20,711 bases of DNA from UHGV virus genome UHGV-0163620; one strand, 5' to 3'. The position numbers and the translations under genes are program-made. A model generated the notes under the pieces. The model was not told the DNA's origin. It worked only from the letters and a program-made list of their open reading frames with translations, and did no database searches. The DNA is from a virus. Positions 4,528 to 20,711 of this stretch are shown piece by piece (positions within the stretch are counted from its first letter, which is position 1; each line of letters opens with the position of its first letter).

Positions 4528-4692
4528 AATATCCTCCAAATTCATATAGTTAGTGGGTTATTACCCCTCAATGACACGAACTGTAACTCTGCCAAACGAA
4601 CACATCCAGTGTTATTTTTCGCTTTTTAGTGAAATTTTTAATTTGCGTTGTTTTCTTGTTTTGGTGTATTTTATGGATATGGAGGCTATAAT

Positions 4693-5004
4693 ATGTTTAA
4701 CGTGATAACCCACCCTGCAGCACTGGATGAACTGCTTGAACTACCAGATGATTTGCGAGGTCGCATGACCAGATTAATTGAGCGACTGGAGAAAGAAGGC
4801 AACAAACTGAAGATGCCCCATAGCCGTGTAATAGGTGGAGGGCTTTTTGAACTACGAGTAGGGGATAAAAACATCGCAAGAACGCTGTACGCCTACGCGA
4901 CTGGTAACGAAATTTATCTATTGCATGCATTTGTAAAAAAGACACAGAAAACACCGGTGAAGGCTATCGAAATCGCCAGAACTCGCCTGAAGGAGATGAA
5001 CTGA
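4693..5004 (+). CDS. RelE/ParE-superfamily toxin, HigB-2 / Gp49-like (DUF891)
   Basis: About 103 aa with family-typical fold signature; toxin-first order; GGAGG 7 nt upstream of the ATG at 4693; stop overlaps the next start (TGATG). Confidence 0.7.
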   Translation: MFNVITHPAALDELLELPDDLRGRMTRLIERLEKEGNKLKMPHSRVIGGGLFELRVGDKNIARTLYAYATGNEIYLLHAFVKKTQKTPVKAIEIARTRLKEMN

Positions 5005-5291
5005 TGAAAGCGAAAGGCATCCCGTTTAACGAAGTAAAAGAAAAACTCCTCAACACTCCAGAAGCCGTCAAAGGATATGAAGAGGCCGACAAAGAGCTGG
5101 AGATGGTCGAAATGTTATACGAAATGAGGGAAAGAGCAGGTTTAACGAAATCAGCTCTGGCTGAACGAATGGGGTTGCGACCGTCAGCCATCAGCCGCCT
5201 GGAAAGCAATCCTTTAGGGGCAAGTATGAAAACTTTGGCTAAATATGCTCATGCCTGCGGCGCAACCATCGATATTCGCGCTGTTTATTAA
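5004..5291 (+). CDS. HTH XRE-family antitoxin (HigA-2-like)
   Basis: 95 aa with C-terminal helix-turn-helix; translationally coupled to the upstream toxin. Confidence 0.7.
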   Translation: MKAKGIPFNEVKEKLLNTPEAVKGYEEADKELEMVEMLYEMRERAGLTKSALAERMGLRPSAISRLESNPLGASMKTLAKYAHACGATIDIRAVY

Positions 5292-9230: not shown

Positions 9231-9531
9231 TTTCTTGTGCGACCACGGTCGCACCCTCTCTGATTTCCAAGTAACGCTTAATCCAAAGATTTTCTATATG
9301 CTTATTACCTGGCTGATTTGATAAATACCAATCGGCAATTACAGACTGCTTATTACTATCTGGTCGTGTCCTGTAACCACAAGTTGGACACCAGATAACA
9401 TATTCATTTCTTACCCCCGAATACCTTAATTCTGGCTTCGACGGTTTCCTGAACATAACTTGTTTACAAAGACAGAATGGCACTTCCTGCCCGATGGCGT
9501 TTGATGATTTCACTGCGCTTCTCCGCCGCAT
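9211..9531 (-). CDS. zinc-ribbon protein, possibly Lar-like restriction alleviation family (tentative)
   Basis: CxC ... CxxC pattern (VPFCLCK ... WCPTCGYRTRP ... ADWYLSN) loosely resembling Lar/RalR small proteins as recalled from memory. Confidence 0.4.
   Translation of the reverse strand: MRRRSAVKSSNAIGQEVPFCLCKQVMFRKPSKPELRYSGVRNEYVIWCPTCGYRTRPDSNKQSVIADWYLSNQPGNKHIENLWIKRYLEIREGATVVAQENENNAI
9238..9253. other. sopC-like 16-bp inverted repeat TGCGACCACGGTCGCA, copy 3
   Basis: Identical to copy 1; 8 bp upstream of the ATG at 9230 and inside the 3' end of ORF 9211..9531. Confidence 0.6.
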
Positions 9532-10174
9532 TTAATAATGCAGTTCGATTTAAGCTCAGACATCGCGACTTAATTAAAAGCCAGCGTTCTTTATAATCTT
9601 GTCTCCAGCTATCAATAGATATATTCAGTAGAAAACTCAGATGCCTGTCCTGTTCTCTCTCATCAACTGCCTCAGCACACGTAAGTTCTGATTTAACCTG
9701 TTGTGCCGCGTAATAAATCAATTTCCGCATGGCTTTTTTCGTGGAGGCCTTCATTTTTTTAAAGCCGCCCCCCGAATGAGCAACCAGAAAATCAAGCCAT
9801 AACCACTGACAAACAATCACATCATTGTTGTAATCAGGCTTGCATCCGTAGCAATAATAAAGCCAGGCTGATTCCTCGTTATTCAACTGACCAATAGCCC
9901 TGCGCCAGCTGGCGCTCTGAAAATCAATATCAGTGAGCAACATTGATGATTGTTTAAATGTTTTCCCCTGGTGGAATCTAACCGGCTCAGCAGGAACGGA
10001 CACTTCGTATGAGTTATCATCCCCCACACTGATTGACCGGACTGGTTTATTGTTAAACCGTCCTGATCTACCGAGACGCATCTGCTCAAGCTGGACCTCC
10101 AGAATGCCACGCTGGCGATAATGAACATCAGCCAATGCCGTAGAGACGCAGCTGCGTATATACTCAAGCTCCAC
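9464..10174 (-). CDS. hypothetical protein, 236 aa, in the position of a Q-like late regulator (function unproven)
   Basis: Long ORF immediately downstream of the cro-like gene; N15 immB is recalled as cB-cro-Q; no antiterminator motif recognised; GTG start overlaps the cro-like stop. Confidence 0.45.
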   Translation of the reverse strand: MELEYIRSCVSTALADVHYRQRGILEVQLEQMRLGRSGRFNNKPVRSISVGDDNSYEVSVPAEPVRFHQGKTFKQSSMLLTDIDFQSASWRRAIGQLNNEESAWLYYCYGCKPDYNNDVIVCQWLWLDFLVAHSGGGFKKMKASTKKAMRKLIYYAAQQVKSELTCAEAVDEREQDRHLSFLLNISIDSWRQDYKERWLLIKSRCLSLNRTALLNAAEKRSEIIKRHRAGSAILSL

Positions 10175-10385
10175 GCTTACGACTCTCCTTAATCGACTGC
10201 TTTACCCGCCGAGTTGTAAAGTCACTCTTCAGCTTATAAGCAGTACGAACTTCAATATCGCTTTGCCGCAATGAAGGAATCTCTCCAGCGGTTAACCATT
10301 GGTAAACAGCTCCGGGTGTTACACCTACCCCTGCCGCTGCTTTTTCTACACTGCCAAAATGGCGAATAAGTTCTTCTGGTTTCAT
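10164..10385 (-). CDS. cro: Cro-like HTH regulator (YdaS/Cro family)
   Basis: 73 aa from the ATG at 10385; HTH segment GVGVTPGAVYQWL; divergent from the repressor gene across a region with two dyad operators. Confidence 0.7.
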   Translation of the reverse strand: MKPEELIRHFGSVEKAAAGVGVTPGAVYQWLTAGEIPSLRQSDIEVRTAYKLKSDFTTRRVKQSIKESRKRGA

Positions 10386-10412
10386 GTTGTTATTATAAAC
10401 AATAAACAACAA

Positions 10413-10454
10413 TTAAAGCCAGCTATAATAAATAAATTTTATAGCCAGCTATAA
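10413..10454. promoter_or_regulatory. immunity-switch operators: two 16-bp dyad sites (TTAAAGCCAGCTATAA at 10413-10428; TTATAGCCAGCTATAA at 10439-10454)
   Basis: Two 7-2-7 inverted repeats with centres 26 bp apart in the AT-rich region between divergent cro-like and repressor genes. Confidence 0.55.
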
Positions 10455-10476
10455 GAAGATCATTTATGATTACAGT

Positions 10477-11073
10477 ATGAAAACACGAGGCGAACGACTG
10501 AAAGCACGCCGTTTAGAGATGAAGCTGACGTTGCGAGAAGTTGCTGAGGCTGTCGATATCTCTATAGCAGGCGTCCAAAACTTAGAACGTGGCGACGTAA
10601 TGCCGTCACTGGAGATAGGTATTGCCCTGGCTAAGTGCTTACGCAAGCCAGTGCATTGGGTGCTATATGGGACAGAATATGACCCTGATCGCATTCCTGT
10701 TATTGGCACAACTGAAAGTGGGCCGGATGAAGAGTGGAAGCCGGGACAGGTTCCAAATACTGAGCGATTCCTGCCATTCATCAGCCAGCGCAATACTGTG
10801 TATGCGTTAACTATCAGCAATCTTACGCAGGGAAACTATCAGCCAGGCGATTTTCTCCTGGTCGATTCTGCGCTGGAACTGGTCCCCGGCGAGGATGTTC
10901 TGGTTCGTGATACTGCAGGAAATATCACTATCCAGCGCCTGGCCCGTTTTGATGATGAAAATTACTATCTGGATGGAACAAACTCACAACGCGCCATCTT
11001 CAGGAAAAGCGATCTTGAATTTGTTCACCAAATAGTCGGAACGATCAAATCATTCATGGTTGAGGGTAGATGA
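10477..11073 (+). CDS. cB: prophage repressor, CI/CB-like (N-terminal XRE HTH, C-terminal S24-peptidase-like domain)
   Basis: N-terminal HTH MKLTLREVAEAVDISIAGVQNLERG; C-terminal beta-rich domain alignable by eye to lambda CI but without an obvious GxSM serine motif or catalytic lysine. Confidence 0.75.
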   Translation: MKTRGERLKARRLEMKLTLREVAEAVDISIAGVQNLERGDVMPSLEIGIALAKCLRKPVHWVLYGTEYDPDRIPVIGTTESGPDEEWKPGQVPNTERFLPFISQRNTVYALTISNLTQGNYQPGDFLLVDSALELVPGEDVLVRDTAGNITIQRLARFDDENYYLDGTNSQRAIFRKSDLEFVHQIVGTIKSFMVEGR

Positions 11074-11318: not shown

Positions 11319-14300
11319 ATGACATTAAACGATTTCTATGCGGATCGCTTTGGCAGCGATCCGTTCTCGCTAATTGAAGCAGCACGGGATGAACTAACCG
11401 AGCTGGCACAGATGGCTGGTATCAACTGGCCTGCCTGTTCCGACAACATCCAACTCAACCCTCGCGGGGGGGTTGAGCGTTACTCTTCATACAATAAAAC
11501 ATCTCCAGAAGCTCTCGAAAAGAGCCTGAAAGGACGCGTAGAAATTTACTCCAGGCTGGAACACAGCAAAGGGATTGATTACCCGTTCATTAACTTCGTC
11601 CATAAAGGCAGCGATGCTGGCTCATGGAGCGGTTTCTCCTTCCTGTTTTCTGAATATCGCCGTGAGCAACAACGGAATAATGCGACCGTGGTCGCACAAC
11701 CGGAAGAAGAACGGGAAAGAATAGAACGTCAGGCCGAAGCACGTCGTCGCCGTGAAGAACAAAAACGAATTAATGACCTGAAAAACAACCAAATGGACCA
11801 TGAACGTTTGCTGGGATGGCTGGCATTCCACAGCGCGTGGGAACATGCTCCGGCTGAAGACGGCTCATGGCCATATGCGATTAAAAAAGGTATTCGTGAC
11901 GTTTTTAGTTCATGTGATGTGCGTCGCGTGACCAGTCACGACAGTGCGAAATGGAGCCGGGGGTCAACCACATATATGGCTATCCCTCTGGCTCACCTGG
12001 ACGGTCGTTATGATGGTCGTATTGTGGGTTGGCAGCGAATCGACAAACAAGGTGGGAAATACCAGACCAGCGCAGTAACCAGCGGCGATTTCGTCGGTGC
12101 CTGCTTTGTTATCGGTGAGCTGAAAGGGGCGCAAAACATCGCTGTTACAGAAGGTTTTGCTACTGGTGCATCCATCTGGCTTGCCACGAAAAAAGATAAA
12201 CGCTTTGACGCTGTGGTTGTCGCTGTATCCGCTAACAACATGGTTCATGTTGTGGAACAACTGGTAAACATGTACCCGGCGGCAAAAATCACCTGCGCAC
12301 TGGATAATGACCGGAAATCTGCCACAGAAGGAAAAGGGAATACCGGCCTGCGGACTGGCTATGAAATCTTATCGAAATTCAACGATGTCCGCTGCGTCTA
12401 CCCAACTTTTGAAGACGATCCGCAAATGGAGTGCAGTGACTTCAACGACCTGCACAAACTACGTGGACTTCGTGAAACAGCACGTCAACTATTTGCAACA
12501 GCAAACCGCCTGAAAACCGGCACTGATTTGCTATCTCTGACGCTCAACCGCCTGAAGACAATTAAGCGGGATAACCGTCGTACTTTTGCCAAAGAGCTGC
12601 TGAGAGCGGTGGATATTGGCATGCTAACCTGTCCGGTTCCTAACAGTCCGTCAGATTTATTTAACATGTTCTGCATCGTTCTGCGTGAAATGGGACTGGA
12701 AAATATCTATCGTGCTACGGTAAAAGACCACATTGCCCGTCGCCTGAATAAAAAGTGCCGTATTGCCCAGGCTCCGCGCTCTTTCAGCGAACGCATAACT
12801 GATCCCAATAAACGACCTCAACATATCACCTATAAGCGTTTTGAAACTTCGGTAATGACCGATGATGTCCTGAAGTACGTGCAATCACTACAGGGGATAG
12901 TCATCGTCCGTGCTGGTATGGGTTCCGGCAAATCTACTGGATTGTTACGACCGTTAATGCATAGCTCAGAACGTGGTATCTCTGTTGCTCACCGTGTCTC
13001 CCTTATTGGTGGCCTGTGGGAAATGATGACAGAAGGAAAAGGTGTAAAAGCCGATATCCTGCACTATCAGGATCCTGGCTATCAGGAAATGGCTCCATAC
13101 GCCAGTAAACTGACCATCTGCATAAACTCGATTGTTAAAAACTGCTGGCAACCGTTGATGCGCCAGCACGACTATTTTGGCTTTGACGAGGCCACACAAG
13201 GGCTACGTGCCGTTCTTTCCGGTCGGGCTATGGAAAACCCGGTGGCTGTATTCAATACGCTAATTGACGCGCTGGCCAGAACGGAACAACACCCAATCAT
13301 GGTGGATGCTGATGCGAACGATCTGCTGGTTGACCTGGCTGAACTGGCTATGAAACGCCGTGAAGAACTAGGTTTACCGGCATGGCTGCAGATCCACGTA
13401 ATTGAATTACCTGTTGATGTTCGCAACCGCGAAACAGGTGAGCCAATCCGGGTTTTTTATACAGAAAAAGATCGCATCATGACCGAGGTGGTGAAAGCTG
13501 TATCGGATGGCGAAAAAATTATGTTGGCCACCGACAGCTCCACCTTTGCAGAAGATGTGACCGCCACCCTGAGAATGCATTTCCCTGGCAAGAAATTTCT
13601 GTGCGTAAACCAGAAAAGCAAACAGGATGAAGAAGTCGATGCCTTTACCAGCCAGCCAAAAGTAATGGTGATGAAATACGATGGACTGATCTACAGCCCG
13701 TCGATTTCCTCCGGGGTGTCATTTGAGAAAAAACATTTTGACCGTCATTTCGGCATGTTCTGCGGTGAAGTTGTGCCCAGCGACGCAGTGCAAATGCTAC
13801 GCCGCGACCGTACAGCAAAAGAATTTATTATTGGCTTTGATAAAGCCCGTGCAAAACGCGAGACTGATCCGCAAAAAATAGAACGTGCATTCGCCCAGGC
13901 ATTACTTGCTACCGCAGGCATGAACGGTGAACTGACGGATGTCATTTTCGATGGCGACCGTATATCAATGGGGGTAGCCAATACCGACTTTACCAGGATG
14001 AAAATTAAAGCAGCCGCAATTGAAGCGTCTGCGCGTAACGACTACGCCAGCAACATGATCTGCATCATGCACAGCGACGGTTATAAGGTATCACCATTAG
14101 CTACCGATTATGCCGCGAACGATTTTGGTAAAGAGCTGCGCAAAGAAGCGCGGGATATTGTGTGGGAACAGACGCTGGATCTGCACCTCAATACAGAGAC
14201 ACCAGAAGAATCAGAGCGTGAAGAACTACTAAAAAAACGTGCGCTAACGCTTGAAGAACAGGCAAAACTGGTCCGCTGGGATATTGAGAACGAACTGAAA

Positions 14301-15302
14301 TTACCGGTTGAAGAAGGCACACTGAAATTCTATTTCGATGGCGCTCGAGACAAAATTCGCCGTTATGAAACGATGCTGCTTGATGAAGTCACAGCCCGTC
14401 GTTATGACCGTGAAGAAGCGGCTATCAATTTTACATACGCATATCGCCAGACCGGACAGTGGCAATATTTTGTGGTGACCGCGATGACACGCGAGCAGGC
14501 TGATGATGTATTCAAAGCGAAATTTCCGGGAATAATCGACTACAAGGTAAAAGCCACCCCAGCTGTTGAGGTCGGCATGCGCGGATTCTATGCGCTTAAA
14601 TCAGCAACTCTCCGGCAGTATTTTATCGACTGCGGTATCGACCCTGAAACTATGACTGGCGAAGCGACGCAGGAACGCCTTAAGTTCGCTCGAGATAATC
14701 TCATGACAGCAGAACGCCGTGACCTGTTGAATAACGTTCTGCGCATTGGTGGTTTTATGACACCAAAAGGGAAGCCTAAAGTGCCGGAAGCACTGTTTAA
14801 AAACATCTGCGACTCTCTCGGCCTAAAAACAGGAAAACGTCGCGGCAGAGATGGCGATAAGCGCCCGACATTGCGTTTTGTTGAGCCTGAGTCTGTAGCA
14901 TTTATGCTTGATATTCTTGCGCAACGTCAGGAGGACGGTATGACGTTGAAAGCTCGCAAGGCAGAAAAATCAACGACCGAAGTGGATCGCGATTTGTCAT
15001 TAAATATATATATGAATGGTGAAACGAGATCCACAAACACGGAGGAACAGGATCCCCCTCGTTCAGCTATATCACAGGCTTTGGCTGTATTGCCGGTGGC
15101 TGTTCCTGAGTCCTGGGCGATGAGTGCTCTGCCATCAGCCGAACTGGAATCTATCAGGGGGTGGTCAGTTGACAGCATCGCATACACGTTTGCAGCCCTT
15201 TATATGACTGAGTTTATGGATTTGCTGTCCGGTCATGAGATTAAGTTGCTGAAGGCTTTTATAGGCCCACGACATGCCAGCGATGAGTTTTGTGTAGTTT
15301 AG
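11319..15302 (+). CDS. repA: RepA-like multidomain replication protein (primase + helicase/origin-binding), 1327 aa
   Basis: Toprim-like segment (VTEGFATGAS ... ALDND); Walker A VRAGMGSGKST and Walker B FGFDEAT; size and architecture match N15 RepA as recalled. Confidence 0.85.
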   Translation: MTLNDFYADRFGSDPFSLIEAARDELTELAQMAGINWPACSDNIQLNPRGGVERYSSYNKTSPEALEKSLKGRVEIYSRLEHSKGIDYPFINFVHKGSDAGSWSGFSFLFSEYRREQQRNNATVVAQPEEERERIERQAEARRRREEQKRINDLKNNQMDHERLLGWLAFHSAWEHAPAEDGSWPYAIKKGIRDVFSSCDVRRVTSHDSAKWSRGSTTYMAIPLAHLDGRYDGRIVGWQRIDKQGGKYQTSAVTSGDFVGACFVIGELKGAQNIAVTEGFATGASIWLATKKDKRFDAVVVAVSANNMVHVVEQLVNMYPAAKITCALDNDRKSATEGKGNTGLRTGYEILSKFNDVRCVYPTFEDDPQMECSDFNDLHKLRGLRETARQLFATANRLKTGTDLLSLTLNRLKTIKRDNRRTFAKELLRAVDIGMLTCPVPNSPSDLFNMFCIVLREMGLENIYRATVKDHIARRLNKKCRIAQAPRSFSERITDPNKRPQHITYKRFETSVMTDDVLKYVQSLQGIVIVRAGMGSGKSTGLLRPLMHSSERGISVAHRVSLIGGLWEMMTEGKGVKADILHYQDPGYQEMAPYASKLTICINSIVKNCWQPLMRQHDYFGFDEATQGLRAVLSGRAMENPVAVFNTLIDALARTEQHPIMVDADANDLLVDLAELAMKRREELGLPAWLQIHVIELPVDVRNRETGEPIRVFYTEKDRIMTEVVKAVSDGEKIMLATDSSTFAEDVTATLRMHFPGKKFLCVNQKSKQDEEVDAFTSQPKVMVMKYDGLIYSPSISSGVSFEKKHFDRHFGMFCGEVVPSDAVQMLRRDRTAKEFIIGFDKARAKRETDPQKIERAFAQALLATAGMNGELTDVIFDGDRISMGVANTDFTRMKIKAAAIEASARNDYASNMICIMHSDGYKVSPLATDYAANDFGKELRKEARDIVWEQTLDLHLNTETPEESEREELLKKRALTLEEQAKLVRWDIENELKLPVEEGTLKFYFDGARDKIRRYETMLLDEVTARRYDREEAAINFTYAYRQTGQWQYFVVTAMTREQADDVFKAKFPGIIDYKVKATPAVEVGMRGFYALKSATLRQYFIDCGIDPETMTGEATQERLKFARDNLMTAERRDLLNNVLRIGGFMTPKGKPKVPEALFKNICDSLGLKTGKRRGRDGDKRPTLRFVEPESVAFMLDILAQRQEDGMTLKARKAEKSTTEVDRDLSLNIYMNGETRSTNTEEQDPPRSAISQALAVLPVAVPESWAMSALPSAELESIRGWSVDSIAYTFAALYMTEFMDLLSGHEIKLLKAFIGPRHASDEFCVV
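11681..11696. other. sopC-like 16-bp inverted repeat TGCGACCGTGGTCGCA, copy 4, inside repA coding sequence
   Basis: Exact 16-mer encoding residues A-T-V-V-A of RepA (codons 122-126). Confidence 0.6.
11927..11940. other. 14-bp palindrome CGTGACCAGTCACG, copy 2, inside repA coding sequence
   Basis: Exact copy of the 5872-5885 site; encodes R-V-T-S-H-D of RepA; 246 bp downstream of sopC-like copy 4. Confidence 0.55.
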
Positions 15303-17017: not shown

Positions 17018-17078
17018 CACCTCGCTGCGGTAAATCCCGCAGTCGGGACTTCGCAATCCTGGCAAAACGAAGCGCACA

Positions 17079-17100
17079 ACACGCGCCAGCGTGTTTTTTT
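17079..17100 (+). terminator. intrinsic terminator/attenuator in the immA-like leader
   Basis: 6-bp stem ACACGC/GCGTGT with 4-nt loop followed by seven T (17094-17100); about 77 nt downstream of the candidate start site. Confidence 0.55.
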
Positions 17101-17131
17101 GTGTGTACAGACCTGCGCATATCCGAATTAT

Positions 17132-17211
17132 GGTGGCTCAGGTGGGGCTGACTTCGGTCGGGCCGGTTTCTTCGTTTACCGGTATTGCGAACCCCGCCTG
17201 GGCTACCACCA
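17132..17211 (+). ncRNA. tRNA-like structured RNA, candidate c4/CA-type antisense regulator (RNase P substrate-like)
   Basis: 5' GGUGGCU pairs with 3' GGCUACC (7 bp, two G-U) followed by ACCA; internal GAC-UUCG-GUC and CCGGU-N10-ACCGG stem-loops; two blocks complementary to 17221-17240 downstream. Confidence 0.4.
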
Positions 17212-17266
17212 ATAAAGAGATTCGCAACTCTGGTGGTAGCACGACCAATAAAACGGAGTGCATACC

Positions 17267-17431
17267 ATGTTCAAATTCAAATTTGCGGCAGTCGTTCGCA
17301 CAGACAAAAAGTCCCACATTCATCATCTTTCCACTATCGCGTCATCTGAACGGGAAGCTCGTCGCCAGTTCGCCAGCCGGTTTGTCCTGGTATTATCTGC
17401 CCGTATTCCGGTGCGCGAGGTGGCTGCATGA
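17267..17431 (+). CDS. small ORF, 54 aa (Icd-like position in an immI/immA-type operon), not in ORF track
   Basis: ATG at 17267 with GGAG 8 nt upstream; stop TGA overlaps the next ATG (ATGA); function unknown. Confidence 0.4.
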   Translation: MFKFKFAAVVRTDKKSHIHHLSTIASSEREARRQFASRFVLVLSARIPVREVAA

Positions 17432-17661
17432 ATCAGGTAAAAATGAACACTGTTGGCCTGCTGGAATCGTTGGATGAACGTCTGGCTCAGGTCTATGCGC
17501 TCGTATCATCAGCCCATCGGACAGTCTCCAGTTGTGAGGCGTCGATTTACCTCTCAGAGGCTGGAAAACTTCTGCAGATTGCGTGTGAGTTAACGCATGA
17601 AGCACAGGGATATTCTGCGTCTCTCTCGTCGCACTTGCTGCGCGATAAGGAGGCTGAATGA
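17428..17661 (+). CDS. hypothetical protein, 77 aa, antirepressor-operon gene
   Basis: Translationally coupled on both sides (ATGA overlaps at 17428 and 17658). Confidence 0.5.
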   Translation: MNQVKMNTVGLLESLDERLAQVYALVSSAHRTVSSCEASIYLSEAGKLLQIACELTHEAQGYSASLSSHLLRDKEAE

Positions 17662-18431
17662 GCGCGTTAGCAGTCTTTTCCTTTCAGGAAGAGCATCAGG
17701 TACGTGTAGTGATGATTAACGGCGATCCGTGGTTTGTGGCGAATGATATTTGCAATGCTTTAAGCATCCAGAATGTCACACAAGCTATCGCTAGATTAGA
17801 TGAAGATGAGCGATCTATGTTTAACATAGGCCGTCAAGGTCAAGCCAATATCATCAGCGAATCAGGTCTTTACACCCTCATTCTCCGCTGCCGTGACGCG
17901 GTGAAGCAAGGCACAACAGCTTGGCGGTTTCGCAAATGGGTAACGAACGAAGTCTTGCCCTCTATTCGCAAAAATGGAGAGTACGTTTACATCGAGCCTG
18001 AGCCAATGCGAGCAGCGGAGCCGTTGAACGGGAGGCAGAAAGCGTATCTGCGAGGGCTGATTAACGATATAGCACAAAGTTTTCGGTGCCGAAATGCCTG
18101 GATCAGTGGAATATGGTTGGCTTTGCGTCGGGCGTGTCGTAATCCATCCCCGAACCCCATAACGGTTGATGATTTGCCAGCAATTGCGGCAGAACTGCGC
18201 AGGATTTTGACGGCTGCTGAGTCGGCATTGAGGAACATGCGCACGTATGAACGGGAGTTGTTGCGTGATGTTGTTCGTGGGGGTAGGCGGAGTATGTCGT
18301 GTGGTGATTTGCCCATCATCGATATCAACTCTGATCTGGAAAAGGCGTTACCCGCACATTTTGAACTGGCAGTTCAAAAACTTGAGCAGCTATCCGCGCA
18401 GTTAAAGCCAGCAGAAATCACTAATAAATAG
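17658..18431 (+). CDS. antirepressor with Bro-N domain
   Basis: N-terminal Bro-N pattern: FSFQEEHQVRVVMINGDPWFVANDICNALSI ... GLYTLI ... FRKWVTNEVLPSIRKNG. Confidence 0.8.
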   Translation: MSALAVFSFQEEHQVRVVMINGDPWFVANDICNALSIQNVTQAIARLDEDERSMFNIGRQGQANIISESGLYTLILRCRDAVKQGTTAWRFRKWVTNEVLPSIRKNGEYVYIEPEPMRAAEPLNGRQKAYLRGLINDIAQSFRCRNAWISGIWLALRRACRNPSPNPITVDDLPAIAAELRRILTAAESALRNMRTYERELLRDVVRGGRRSMSCGDLPIIDINSDLEKALPAHFELAVQKLEQLSAQLKPAEITNK

Positions 18432-18569
18432 GGTTGGCCAGCCCGAATTTATGCCCTTCTTAGTGAGGGGAAGCTTCGCAGTCGGGGCGGTGATGTCTGT
18501 GGTTGCAGCCGCGTTTCCTCCGTTACTTCTGCCCTTTGCAGGGGGTGGGCGAGGCAGGCCACATAACAA

Positions 18570-18593
18570 GGCACCGATTAATTCGGTGCCTTT
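18570..18593. terminator. hairpin between convergent antirepressor and telN genes (possible bidirectional terminator)
   Basis: 7-bp stem GGCACCG/CGGTGCC with 7-nt loop followed by TTT on the plus strand; U-tract weak on both strands. Confidence 0.4.
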
Positions 18594-18603
18594 AACGTAT
18601 GCT

Positions 18604-20493
18604 TTAGCCGAAATATGTCAGCCATGCTAACTGCATTGCTGACATGGGGCTGTTTGCACTGCCTGACCACGCATAATTCTGGCCATTATAATGAAACTCG
18701 ACAACGTATGAGCCATCACCAATATTTCTCACTGGCTTAAATACCGGCTTAGATACAGGCGAAGAAGGTGCAGGCGGTTGCTGTTCTTCTACGCTCTCTT
18801 CCTCTTCCTCTATCTCAATTTCGTCGTCATCCAGATCGTCATCCTCTGATAATTCATCCGCCAGTTCAGGTATTGCTTCCAGTTCTTCTTCGTCAGGCAT
18901 AACGATTTCTGGAGTATCTATTTTCAGTTGCCATTGTCCGTTTTCGCCAACAAATTGCCCCAGAGCATCAGCAGCAAATTCCAGGTATCGACTAATCATT
19001 GTAGGGCTAAATTTGAATGCTCTTAGAGTGCTGTTCGTGATTTTTATAGAGGGGTCCTGCTCTACCAGCTGCTTAACTGTGTTATGCAGACGAACTCCGG
19101 CATCACCTCTGGCGAATCCTGGCATTTCTTCATCAAGCTGCTGCAATGCTTCCAGCCTGGTATTTTCGTTTCCAGTATTTGGCCTCCATGTCTTTGAGAA
19201 GTTGGCCAGCTTGAATTGCTTATAGTGTAATTGAGTGTTTTCATCGTCATGGCCTAAAATTTCCATAAAGAAAACATCCTCATCTACGTTTTTCCAACGA
19301 GGATCTACGCGGAAAAACATTTCATACGCAATACGGGCATAAATAGCACGACTATCTTTATAAACACGGCGGTCATCTTTGAAAAATGATTTAACCCACG
19401 GGTTAAAAGCCTTTGCTAATATGGCATTAATCCGTCCGTTTTCAGAGCGTGTGTCGTTATCTCCATAACCTTTAACGACATCATCAAAATCAGATGCTGC
19501 TGGGCATGAGCGAAGTACATTTATTAAATAAACAAATGTTTTTGCTTCGCATAATGTATATATTTTTCTGGTTATATCATCAGAAGTTCTTTTTTTTGCT
19601 TGGCCTAAAAAATCAACGGTATACTTACCAGAAACAGTAAATGTACCTTGATACATAATCTCAATCATTCGTCTTCCTGACAATGCAGCAAGTGCAAATG
19701 CCAAAGGAGCCATACCTGAACGAGTGTTTAGATTATTTAATGTAGCAGGGCTATTTATAATATCGTAAATAGCTTGCATATATTTAGGGTAATCAATGAC
19801 CACCACGTTACGTTTCTTATTGTGCAGAACGTCTGCCCATCGTTGCTGGATAGATGCGCGTTCGGCAGGGCTTAGTTGAAGATGATAGAGAATCTCATGG
19901 TTAACTTTTAGCTGATTCAACTCCTCAAGTAAGGCAGATCCTTGCTGTAGTAATTTATATAAATAATCGCGCTTATCTTTCCAGTTATCGCTAGTTAAAT
20001 CAGAAATGGCGAATTGCCACTCTTTATATTTATTTGATAATTTTAATAACTTATTATGACTTTTGTTATCGCCAATTCTGATATTAGATAAATCTTCTGA
20101 TAGAGGGAGAATTAATTTTAATTTTGCCTGTAAAGCTGACATTCTCTGGCGAATATCGGCAGCAGGTAGAGAAAGCCATGACAATAGCTCCTCATTATAT
20201 AAAGGATACTTTTCAGATAGGCGATGTATATTTTTTTCAAAGCTATGATGAAGTTTATCATCAAACCGTTTTCTGGCCCTGCTCATATAGGCATTGAATG
20301 TGTTGGCTGTAATTCTTTTTTCTAATCCTTTCCCCCTAAACTTTCGCTTGTCATTAAATAATGCATTTTTAAATTTTAATGCAACAGCCTTTATTTTTTT
20401 TGTTTTCTCCCCTTGAGGACGGTCAGAGTTATCTATTGACTCAACATCGCTAACAAGTGAGTTTATTAATTCACCGATTTTTACTTTGCTCAT
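18604..20493 (-). CDS. telN: protelomerase (telomere resolvase), TelN-like
   Basis: 629 aa; N-terminus MSKVKIGELIN and long stretches match phage N15 TelN as recalled; acidic C-terminal region; AGGAGAGG Shine-Dalgarno; adjacent palindromic target site. Confidence 0.95.
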   Translation of the reverse strand: MSKVKIGELINSLVSDVESIDNSDRPQGEKTKKIKAVALKFKNALFNDKRKFRGKGLEKRITANTFNAYMSRARKRFDDKLHHSFEKNIHRLSEKYPLYNEELLSWLSLPAADIRQRMSALQAKLKLILPLSEDLSNIRIGDNKSHNKLLKLSNKYKEWQFAISDLTSDNWKDKRDYLYKLLQQGSALLEELNQLKVNHEILYHLQLSPAERASIQQRWADVLHNKKRNVVVIDYPKYMQAIYDIINSPATLNNLNTRSGMAPLAFALAALSGRRMIEIMYQGTFTVSGKYTVDFLGQAKKRTSDDITRKIYTLCEAKTFVYLINVLRSCPAASDFDDVVKGYGDNDTRSENGRINAILAKAFNPWVKSFFKDDRRVYKDSRAIYARIAYEMFFRVDPRWKNVDEDVFFMEILGHDDENTQLHYKQFKLANFSKTWRPNTGNENTRLEALQQLDEEMPGFARGDAGVRLHNTVKQLVEQDPSIKITNSTLRAFKFSPTMISRYLEFAADALGQFVGENGQWQLKIDTPEIVMPDEEELEAIPELADELSEDDDLDDDEIEIEEEEESVEEQQPPAPSSPVSKPVFKPVRNIGDGSYVVEFHYNGQNYAWSGSANSPMSAMQLAWLTYFG

Positions 20494-20657
20494 CTTTCCT
20501 CTCCTGATTATCCGCTCGGATTATCGTAACACAATTTGAGAATAAGATAACTAATAACGCGTTAACTTAGGCACAAACTAACAGAACACAATAACGGGCA
20601 ATAAATAAAAACACAATATCAGAACGCTAAAATTTGTTCCTTGACTTTGTTCTGAAA

Positions 20658-20711
20658 ATTAGCACATAATTTCCCATTATACGCGCGTATAATGGGAAAT
20701 TATGTGCTAAT
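20658..20711. other. telomere resolution site (telRL-like), perfect palindrome of at least 54 bp truncated by the window end
   Basis: All 27 base pairs around the centre (between 20684 and 20685, core TATACGCGCGTATA) verified complementary; located 165 bp upstream of telN. Confidence 0.85.

Follow-up and report, generated by a model that had tools for sequence, protein, structure and literature searches.

A TelN-type protelomerase gene and a terminal palindrome on a putative left arm of an N15-type linear plasmid-prophage

The virus genome UHGV-0163620 is represented by one stretch of 20,711 nucleotides (nt), which we analysed at its full length and call the window. One end of it carries a gene for a protein of 629 amino acids (aa) and, next to this gene, a perfect palindrome that runs to the last base. 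From these two features the original prediction proposed a TelN-like protelomerase, a telomere-resolution site and an arm of a linear plasmid-prophage. Both the open reading frame (ORF) at 18604-20493 on the minus strand and a repeat of 27+27 nt were recovered here, and the sequence evidence supports a reading of the window as the left arm, proximal to telL, of an N15-type linear plasmid-prophage. This is a well-known kind of Escherichia coli and Shigella phage, and the arm carries its protelomerase gene and left telomere. The features at this end of the window are as follows.

18604-20493, minus strand: telN-like protelomerase (telomere resolvase) gene, 629 aa with an ATG start, assigned by Pfam, PDB, tblastn and alignment
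20494-20657, no strand assigned: telN-telL intergenic region with degenerate L3-like repeats, from a motif scan and alignment with N15 and phiKO2
20658-20684, no strand assigned: telL half-site, made up of the outer L3-like motif ATTAGCACATAAT (20658-20670) and the left half of telO, with the hairpin turn predicted between 20684 and 20685
20674-20695, no strand assigned: telO core of 22 bp, CCATTATACGCGCGTATAATGG, identical to that of N15, phiKO2 and 37 IMG/VR loci
20685-20711, no strand assigned: mirrored telL half-site, which repeats 20658-20684 in reverse complement together with its lineage-specific single-nucleotide polymorphism (SNP)

Protelomerase gene and telomere site

The membership of the 629-aa protein in the protelomerase family was demonstrated by its domains and its closest structure. 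All four TelK domains were found by Pfam (TelK_N, TelK_muzzle, ResT-TelK_cat and TelK_stirrup, with 89-171 bits against cut-offs of 27-28), and the sole relative in the PDB was the phiKO2 enzyme TelK, 2v6e, with E=2.4e-295 over residues 1-536. The original prediction had proposed an alignment with the protelomerases of N15, phiKO2 and PY54. By tblastn against phage genomes the protein was 77% identical to N15 TelN (79% by MAFFT), 73% to phiKO2 TelK and 41% to PY54 Tel, with 97.2% to the phages PhiR46_1 and YDC107_1 and 27-33% to the Vibrio/Halomonas enzymes. In a four-way alignment with TelN, TelK and PY54 Tel, the residues R275, K300, R382, H415 and Y424 were invariant, and Y424 was aligned with Tyr425 of both TelN and TelK. 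By comparison with the TelK structure, the first four are taken to be active-site residues. A full-text literature search for the names of TelK active-site residues found nothing relevant, so that the tyrosine alone is tied to a cited experiment, in which the TelN mutant Y425F was catalytically dead and gave no resolution (PMC12624138). Judged from its sequence, the protein is a bona fide TelN/TelK-type protelomerase for which a hairpin-forming cleaving-joining activity is predicted. The exact sequence is present in NCBI as 'protelomerase [Shigella sonnei]', in a 90% cluster of 682 members, and another 13 contigs encode it.

A perfect inverted repeat occupies the final 54 bases of the window (20658-20711), as two 27-nt arms (20658-20684 and 20685-20711) with zero spacer and with the dyad between 20684 and 20685, within ACGC/GCGT. 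By direct calculation, the chance expectation for a perfect 27-nt palindrome without spacer in 20.7 kb is about 1e-12. Folding of the tel site as a single strand gave -24.7 kcal/mol, with z = -12 relative to shuffles. The identity of the site was demonstrated by its telO core, which occurs once in the window (0 expected in shuffles) and is shared with N15, and this bears out the proposal of a telomere-resolution site. The N15 record annotates the same palindrome as the cut site of prophage formation, cut at the dyad, and the PhiR46_1 record begins with the same sequence, annotated 'telL site'. The dyad lies 191 nt from the telN start codon (20493), compared to 192 nt in N15. The outer 13 nt at 20658-20670 belong to the L3-type motif with the family consensus ATCAGCACA(C/T)AAT, of which only the left side can be judged in the window. 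As the original prediction noted, the palindrome is not that of N15: compared with the N15 left arm, 3 of the 27 positions of the half-site are different, and compared with its Escherichia relatives, 1-2 are.

Between telN and the half-site, degenerate L3-like repeats that share AACACAAT were found at 20523-20535, 20580-20592 and 20605-20617, with an inverted copy at 20644-20656. All three occurrences of this octamer in the whole window fall within 20528-20617 on one strand, and the TTGTGTT blocks of the repeats align with conserved blocks in N15 and phiKO2. The repeats are, from their sequence, candidates for the L1/L2 parts of an extended TelN occupancy site. In N15 the target has been described as a 56-bp core with L3/R3, together with degenerate L1/L2 and R1/R2 copies, inside a natural site of 310 bp (PMC12624138). 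The layout in the window matches this description. The telN promoter presumably lies in 20494-20657. A promoter consensus scan of 18300-20711 gave nothing above the shuffle expectation and no convincing telN promoter, and the 'terminator' matches at the tel site in the same scan were merely the palindrome. A promoter-like sequence, TTGACT-18-CATAAT (10/12 matches, 20641-20670, plus strand), overlaps the L3-type motif and points outward across the telomere; it would read toward sopA in the circular or phage form.

Origin of the terminal palindrome

A perfect palindrome at this place might be telRL, still intact as in the circular or cos-ended form of the phage, in which case the window was cut arbitrarily 27 nt past the dyad and does not reflect the linear-plasmid state. 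We sorted the relatives at the tel site into three classes: true junctions, long-read records and draft contigs. Two types of true junction (telN - tel - sopA) were seen. In the first, the right arm is ...ATGT-TTCGTTATGTTC and about 21 nt are symmetric per arm (L003, L020, L034 and L035); in the second, it is ...ATGT-GCTGATATGTTC and the true telR-telL junction is a genuine perfect palindrome of 54 bp (L028 and L036). A 54-bp palindrome alone is therefore not proof of fold-back, and contigs that contain the junction exist for this very lineage (L047). The end-point of alignments, which with junction-type relatives stop at 20705, 21 nt past the dyad, was also tried as a proof of fold-back and was set aside as insufficient, because L028 and L036 have a real 54-bp telRL.

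The evidence that bears most directly on the right arm comes from L047 (GCA_038348835.1, 46,787 nt). It encodes the identical 629-aa protein and, on the telN side, shares 5080 of 5081 nt with the window, among them a SNP in the outer motif, which reads ATTAGC in the window and in L047 and ATCAGC in all other relatives. L047 holds the real junction to sopA-sopB. Its telR arm, which adjoins sopA, is GCGTATAATGGGGAATTATGTTTCGTT and differs from the last 27 nt of the window at 6 positions (13 and 22-26). The native telRL in L047 is perfect over 12 nt per arm, has a mismatch at position 13, is symmetric to 21 nt and diverges after that. In the window, by contrast, the right arm carries the exact complement of the SNP motif, GCTAAT. 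Because telL and telR are separate ends that evolve as such, a change in one is not copied to the other, and the mirrored SNP implies fold-back. The difference from the L047 telR arm and the mirrored private SNP together demonstrate that the right arm is not telR. From this comparison of sequences we conclude that the 54-bp palindrome is not the native telRL and that the window appears to end in telL folded back. The palindrome is thus a telomere-resolution site, as proposed, but its 54 bp are not the native extent of the site, since the right half is mirrored telL and the native telRL of L047 differs.

The position of the last base is consistent with this. A de Bruijn unitig on a sequence followed by its own reverse complement stops (k-1)/2 nt past the centre, because the k-mer that would follow reads as the reverse complement of the one before it. 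In a unitig simulation with the window sequence as a hairpin template, the unitig stopped 15 nt past the centre at k=31 and 27 nt past it at k=55, while a telRL-type template gave no stop. The window stops at 27 nt, which equals (55-1)/2 and points to an assembly at k=55; in two Logan contigs built at k=31 from the same element, the distance from the dyad to the end is exactly 15 nt. In related elements, a further eleven loci at contig ends (10 from IMG/VR and the PhiR46_1 record) break off 11-51 nt beyond the dyad. At the opposite end, positions 1-66 of the window are an A-rich low-complexity run, 33 A followed by TAAATATATAAAAAAAAAATAAATAAAAATAAAAAA, which near-identical relatives do not have; at the equivalent place they have ordinary intergenic sequence ending ...GTTCGAAAAAAAATAAACAACTACGAGAG. 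The run looks like contig-end junk of about one k-mer in length and suggests that the window is a whole short-read contig. Given the mirrored SNP, the telR arm of L047, the two stops that fit palindrome termination and the junk at the other end, an intact telRL cut at random is quite improbable.

We consider it very probable that the 629-aa protein is the protelomerase of the element, that 20658-20684 is the real telL end, that 20685-20711 is telL read back round the hairpin, and that the window stops where a de Bruijn assembly at k=55 would stop. Several points weigh against this explanation. The physical hairpin, as well as the assembler and its k value, are things that we infer from assembly behaviour, and several of the related contig ends would require unusual k values. 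It is conceivable that the window was cut out of a longer record, genuine 54-bp perfect telRL sites exist at the real junctions of L028 and L036, and a telLL replication intermediate gives the same sequence as a hairpin.

The last of these points is a reading of its own, in which the mirrored sequence comes from a replicated telLL junction, a head-to-head intermediate awaiting resolution by TelN, and not from reading through a hairpin. It would consist of exactly L and the reverse complement of L, as read-through would, and N15 makes telLL and telRR in each round (PMC12624138). From established N15 biology, resolved ends should greatly outnumber such intermediates at steady state, and we regard this origin as highly unlikely. 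The linear-hairpin lifestyle is the same either way, so that it would refine the explanation by read-through and not contradict it. A terminal inverted repeat made by a library or assembly chimera, beside a protelomerase gene left as a remnant in a circular plasmid, has almost no chance of being right: inverted chimeras do occur, the related contig L049 has a Nextera adapter at its start, joined on close to the site, and several 'complete' records of the family are clearly mis-assembled, but the centre of symmetry is exactly the telO dyad common to N15, which has its annotated cut site at this point, independent assemblies from different assemblers behave alike, and the protein is full-length with four domains and all catalytic residues.

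If the hairpin reading is right, the element would be maintained in the way known for its relatives, and we infer the enzymatic steps from the biochemistry of N15 and phiKO2. A protelomerase dimer would bind the dyad-symmetric tel site, which consists of the 22-bp telO core and the outer L3/R3-type motifs. Both strands would be cut in a staggered manner a few bases to either side of the dyad, via a 3'-phosphotyrosine intermediate at Tyr424 (equivalent to Tyr425 of TelN and TelK), and each strand would be rejoined to its own complement to give the telL and telR hairpins. The enzyme would act on telRL after infection, and in each round of plasmid replication, which proceeds bidirectionally from an origin internal to repA, it would then resolve telLL and telRR. 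N15 TelN also shields hairpins from SbcCD, independent of catalysis (PMC12624138). By analogy the 629-aa protein plausibly does likewise, because it is 77-79% identical to TelN and comes from the same host genus.

Mirrored ends in other records and site recognition

Folded-back ends were also found in the long-read records. In L001 (YDC107_1), L004 (RL465 plasmid III), L009 and L005 (pG749_3), the sequence turns back on itself at the dyad and repeats the preceding 0.4-6.8 kb in reverse complement, so that telN is duplicated. These kb-long inverted duplications are fold-back mis-assemblies of hairpin ends. The record sizes of 60-90 kb are inflated by such mis-assembly with two telN copies, and many 'complete plasmids' of this size and family in the databases are fold-back artefacts. 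In L001, L004 and L005 one of the two telN copies is sometimes broken into fragments named 'protelomerase domain protein'. pG749_3 was deposited as a 'circular' molecule of 62.5 kb; the mSphere 2016 paper that lists it does not discuss the element. In L049 (ENA ERZ652916 NODE_959), positions 1-50 contain a Nextera adapter (…AGATGTGTATAAGAGACAG) joined to the element at a distance of 12 nt from the tel dyad; the adapter was left untrimmed in this public metagenome assembly and sits at the very tip of the linear element.

For users of draft assemblies, a perfect palindrome at a contig edge is a signature of a hairpin end and is not to be taken as the native resolution site. A contig that ends (k-1)/2 nt past the centre of a palindrome could serve to detect hairpin telomeres without access to the reads.

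The outer motifs of the two telomeres are unlike in this lineage. At positions 22-27 from the dyad, telL has GCTGAT or GCTAAT and telR has TTCGTT. Among the Escherichia relatives, two types of telR arm were observed at these positions: TTCGTT, unlike telL, and GCTGAT, as in telL (L003, L020, L034, L035 and L047 versus L028, L036 and L010). Arms of both types also occur as mirrored contig ends, those of the telR type in L007, L019 and L042, which suggests from the sequences that both are functional telomeres with hairpins. Since both motif types are seen as mirrored ends, one protelomerase must accept both half-sites. A possible reading, which we hold only tentatively, joins these observations: one enzyme would resolve telLL, telRR and an asymmetric telRL with unlike outer motifs, either because the effective site is the inner ~42 bp and L3/R3 is no strict specificity determinant, or because the flanking repeats compensate, and the stop at contig ends would serve as a hairpin detector. 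The difference between the telL and telR outer motifs is a small but testable point on site recognition by protelomerases.

The left arm and its known relatives

The gene context of telN was demonstrated with Pfam, Rfam and the annotation of relatives. The order is Rz/lysozyme/holin, a DNA methylase, a Gp49/HTH toxin-antitoxin pair, DUF551 and a 3'-5' exonuclease, followed by Q, Cro, a cB-like repressor, a RepA of 1,327 aa, isrK/C4 RNAs with Icd-like ORFs and a Bro-N antirepressor, then telN and the telomere. This is the gene order of an N15-type left arm, and together with the N15-like DNA matches it upholds the proposed linear plasmid-prophage arm. The main features outside the telN-telL region are listed below.

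9464-11073, no strand assigned: immunity region, with Q antiterminator (9464-10174, minus), Cro (10164-10412, minus) and a cB-like HTH/S24 repressor (10477-11073, plus)
11319-15302, plus strand: RepA-type replication protein (primase/helicase, CyRepA1 family), annotated in relatives as 'plasmid replication protein, CyRepA1 family'
17024-18431, plus strand: anti-immunity module, with isrK-like and C4 antisense RNAs, Icd-like ORFs and the Bro-N antirepressor (17658-18431)
18569-18589, no strand assigned: GC-rich stem-loop GGCACCGATTAATTCGGTGCC, read from the sequence, between the telN stop codon and the converging unit of Bro-N and a 59-aa ORF

The RepA-type gene has weak Pfam matches to Toprim and ori-binding domains and about 76% nt identity to N15 gene 37. 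In the immunity region, Pfam found Phage_antiter_Q, P22_Cro and HTH_3 with Peptidase_S24, and the DNA matches Q, cro and cB of N15. Two Rfam matches at gathering level lie at 17024-17213 on the plus strand, isrK (RF01394, 52.8 bits) and C4 antisense RNA (RF01695, 82.3 bits), just upstream of the Icd-like ORFs, which are so annotated in relatives, and of the Bro-N gene (Pfam Bro-N). The stretch at 17024-18431 is a P1/N15-type anti-immunity module next to telN. The stem-loop at 18569-18589 is likely a bidirectional terminator; a 'putative bidirectional' terminator is annotated at the equivalent place in phiKO2, and a scan for T-run terminators did not pick up the stem-loop. At 4648-5291 on the plus strand, a Gp49/RelE-ParE-type toxin (118 aa) is followed by an HTH antitoxin (95 aa), and the pair is likely a plasmid-addiction module on the prophage arm. 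A search of the window and of pG749_3 for a cos of the lambda/N15 type (GGGCGGCGACCT, at most 2 mismatches) did not locate cos and gave only a chance-level match in the lysis region. The gene order predicts a cos outside the window, at roughly 0.5-1 kb from position 1. Beyond the other end of the window, sopA/sopB adjoin the tel site in the near-identical relatives L003 and L047, and the terminase was found in L005; these positions fall outside the window.

Over its whole length the window is 97-98% identical at the nt level, over 80-98% of the length, to about 18 'plasmids' in PLSDB and to the phages YDC107_1 and PhiR46_1. The hosts of these 'plasmids' are E. coli, E. fergusonii, E. albertii and Shigella. 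Matches to N15, phiKO2 and Klebsiella telomere phages were patchy, at about 75%. The telN-tel segment was present in 17 of 5,426 complete E. coli genomes, always in plasmid records and never in the chromosome. The original prediction considered the element a distinct family member. This holds relative to N15 (77-79% aa identity, with 3 of 27 positions different in the arms), but the lineage itself was known before, and NCBI already has the exact protein. The gene and the site are therefore already known: the element is distinct from N15 itself and near-identical to deposited genomes. As this telomere phage lineage has been sequenced and annotated, with the exact protelomerase in NCBI, the value for discovery is small and the value of the findings is practical.

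Among the known systems, Tel of the Yersinia phage PY54 and the enzymes of the Vibrio/Halomonas phages VP882 and phiHAP-1 belong to the same enzyme family and go with the same lifestyle, but share only 41% and 27-33% identity, respectively, with the 629-aa protein, and in the region fetched PY54 is without the 22-bp N15-type telO core. The TelK of the Klebsiella phage phiKO2 (2V6E) is closer, with the same N, muzzle, catalytic and stirrup domains and the same telO core. It differs in its 73% full-length identity and in its host genus, and a shorter acidic linker ahead of the C-terminal domain also sets the two proteins apart. N15, with TelN (gp29) and telRL/tos, shares the four-domain enzyme, the identical 22-bp telO, the same type of outer motif and the same distance between gene and site, and its left arm likewise carries telN, the antirepressor module, repA, cB/cro/Q and the lysis genes. 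However, its DNA resembles the window in patches only (about 75% over 19% of the window length), 3 of 27 arm positions are different, and the N15 telRL is symmetric over 56 bp with 3 mismatches per arm, compared to about 42 bp in the lineage of the window, where the outer motif of telR is unlike that of telL.

The closest relatives are YDC107_1 (CP025712, genus Ravinvirus), PhiR46_1 (PV340565), which was deposited in prophage orientation with an annotated telL at its start, and about 30 Escherichia/Shigella 'plasmid' records, for example RL465 plasmid III (NZ_LT906558), pG749_3 (NZ_CP014491) and E. albertii pEA8_3 (NZ_CP117561). They are 96-99% identical at the nt level across telN and the tel site and cover 84-98% of the whole window at about 97-98%, with the same gene order and with a telL flank that is the same except for 1-2 SNPs. 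The window differs from them by one private SNP in the outer motif and by mosaic differences in accessory genes over about 2-20% of its length.

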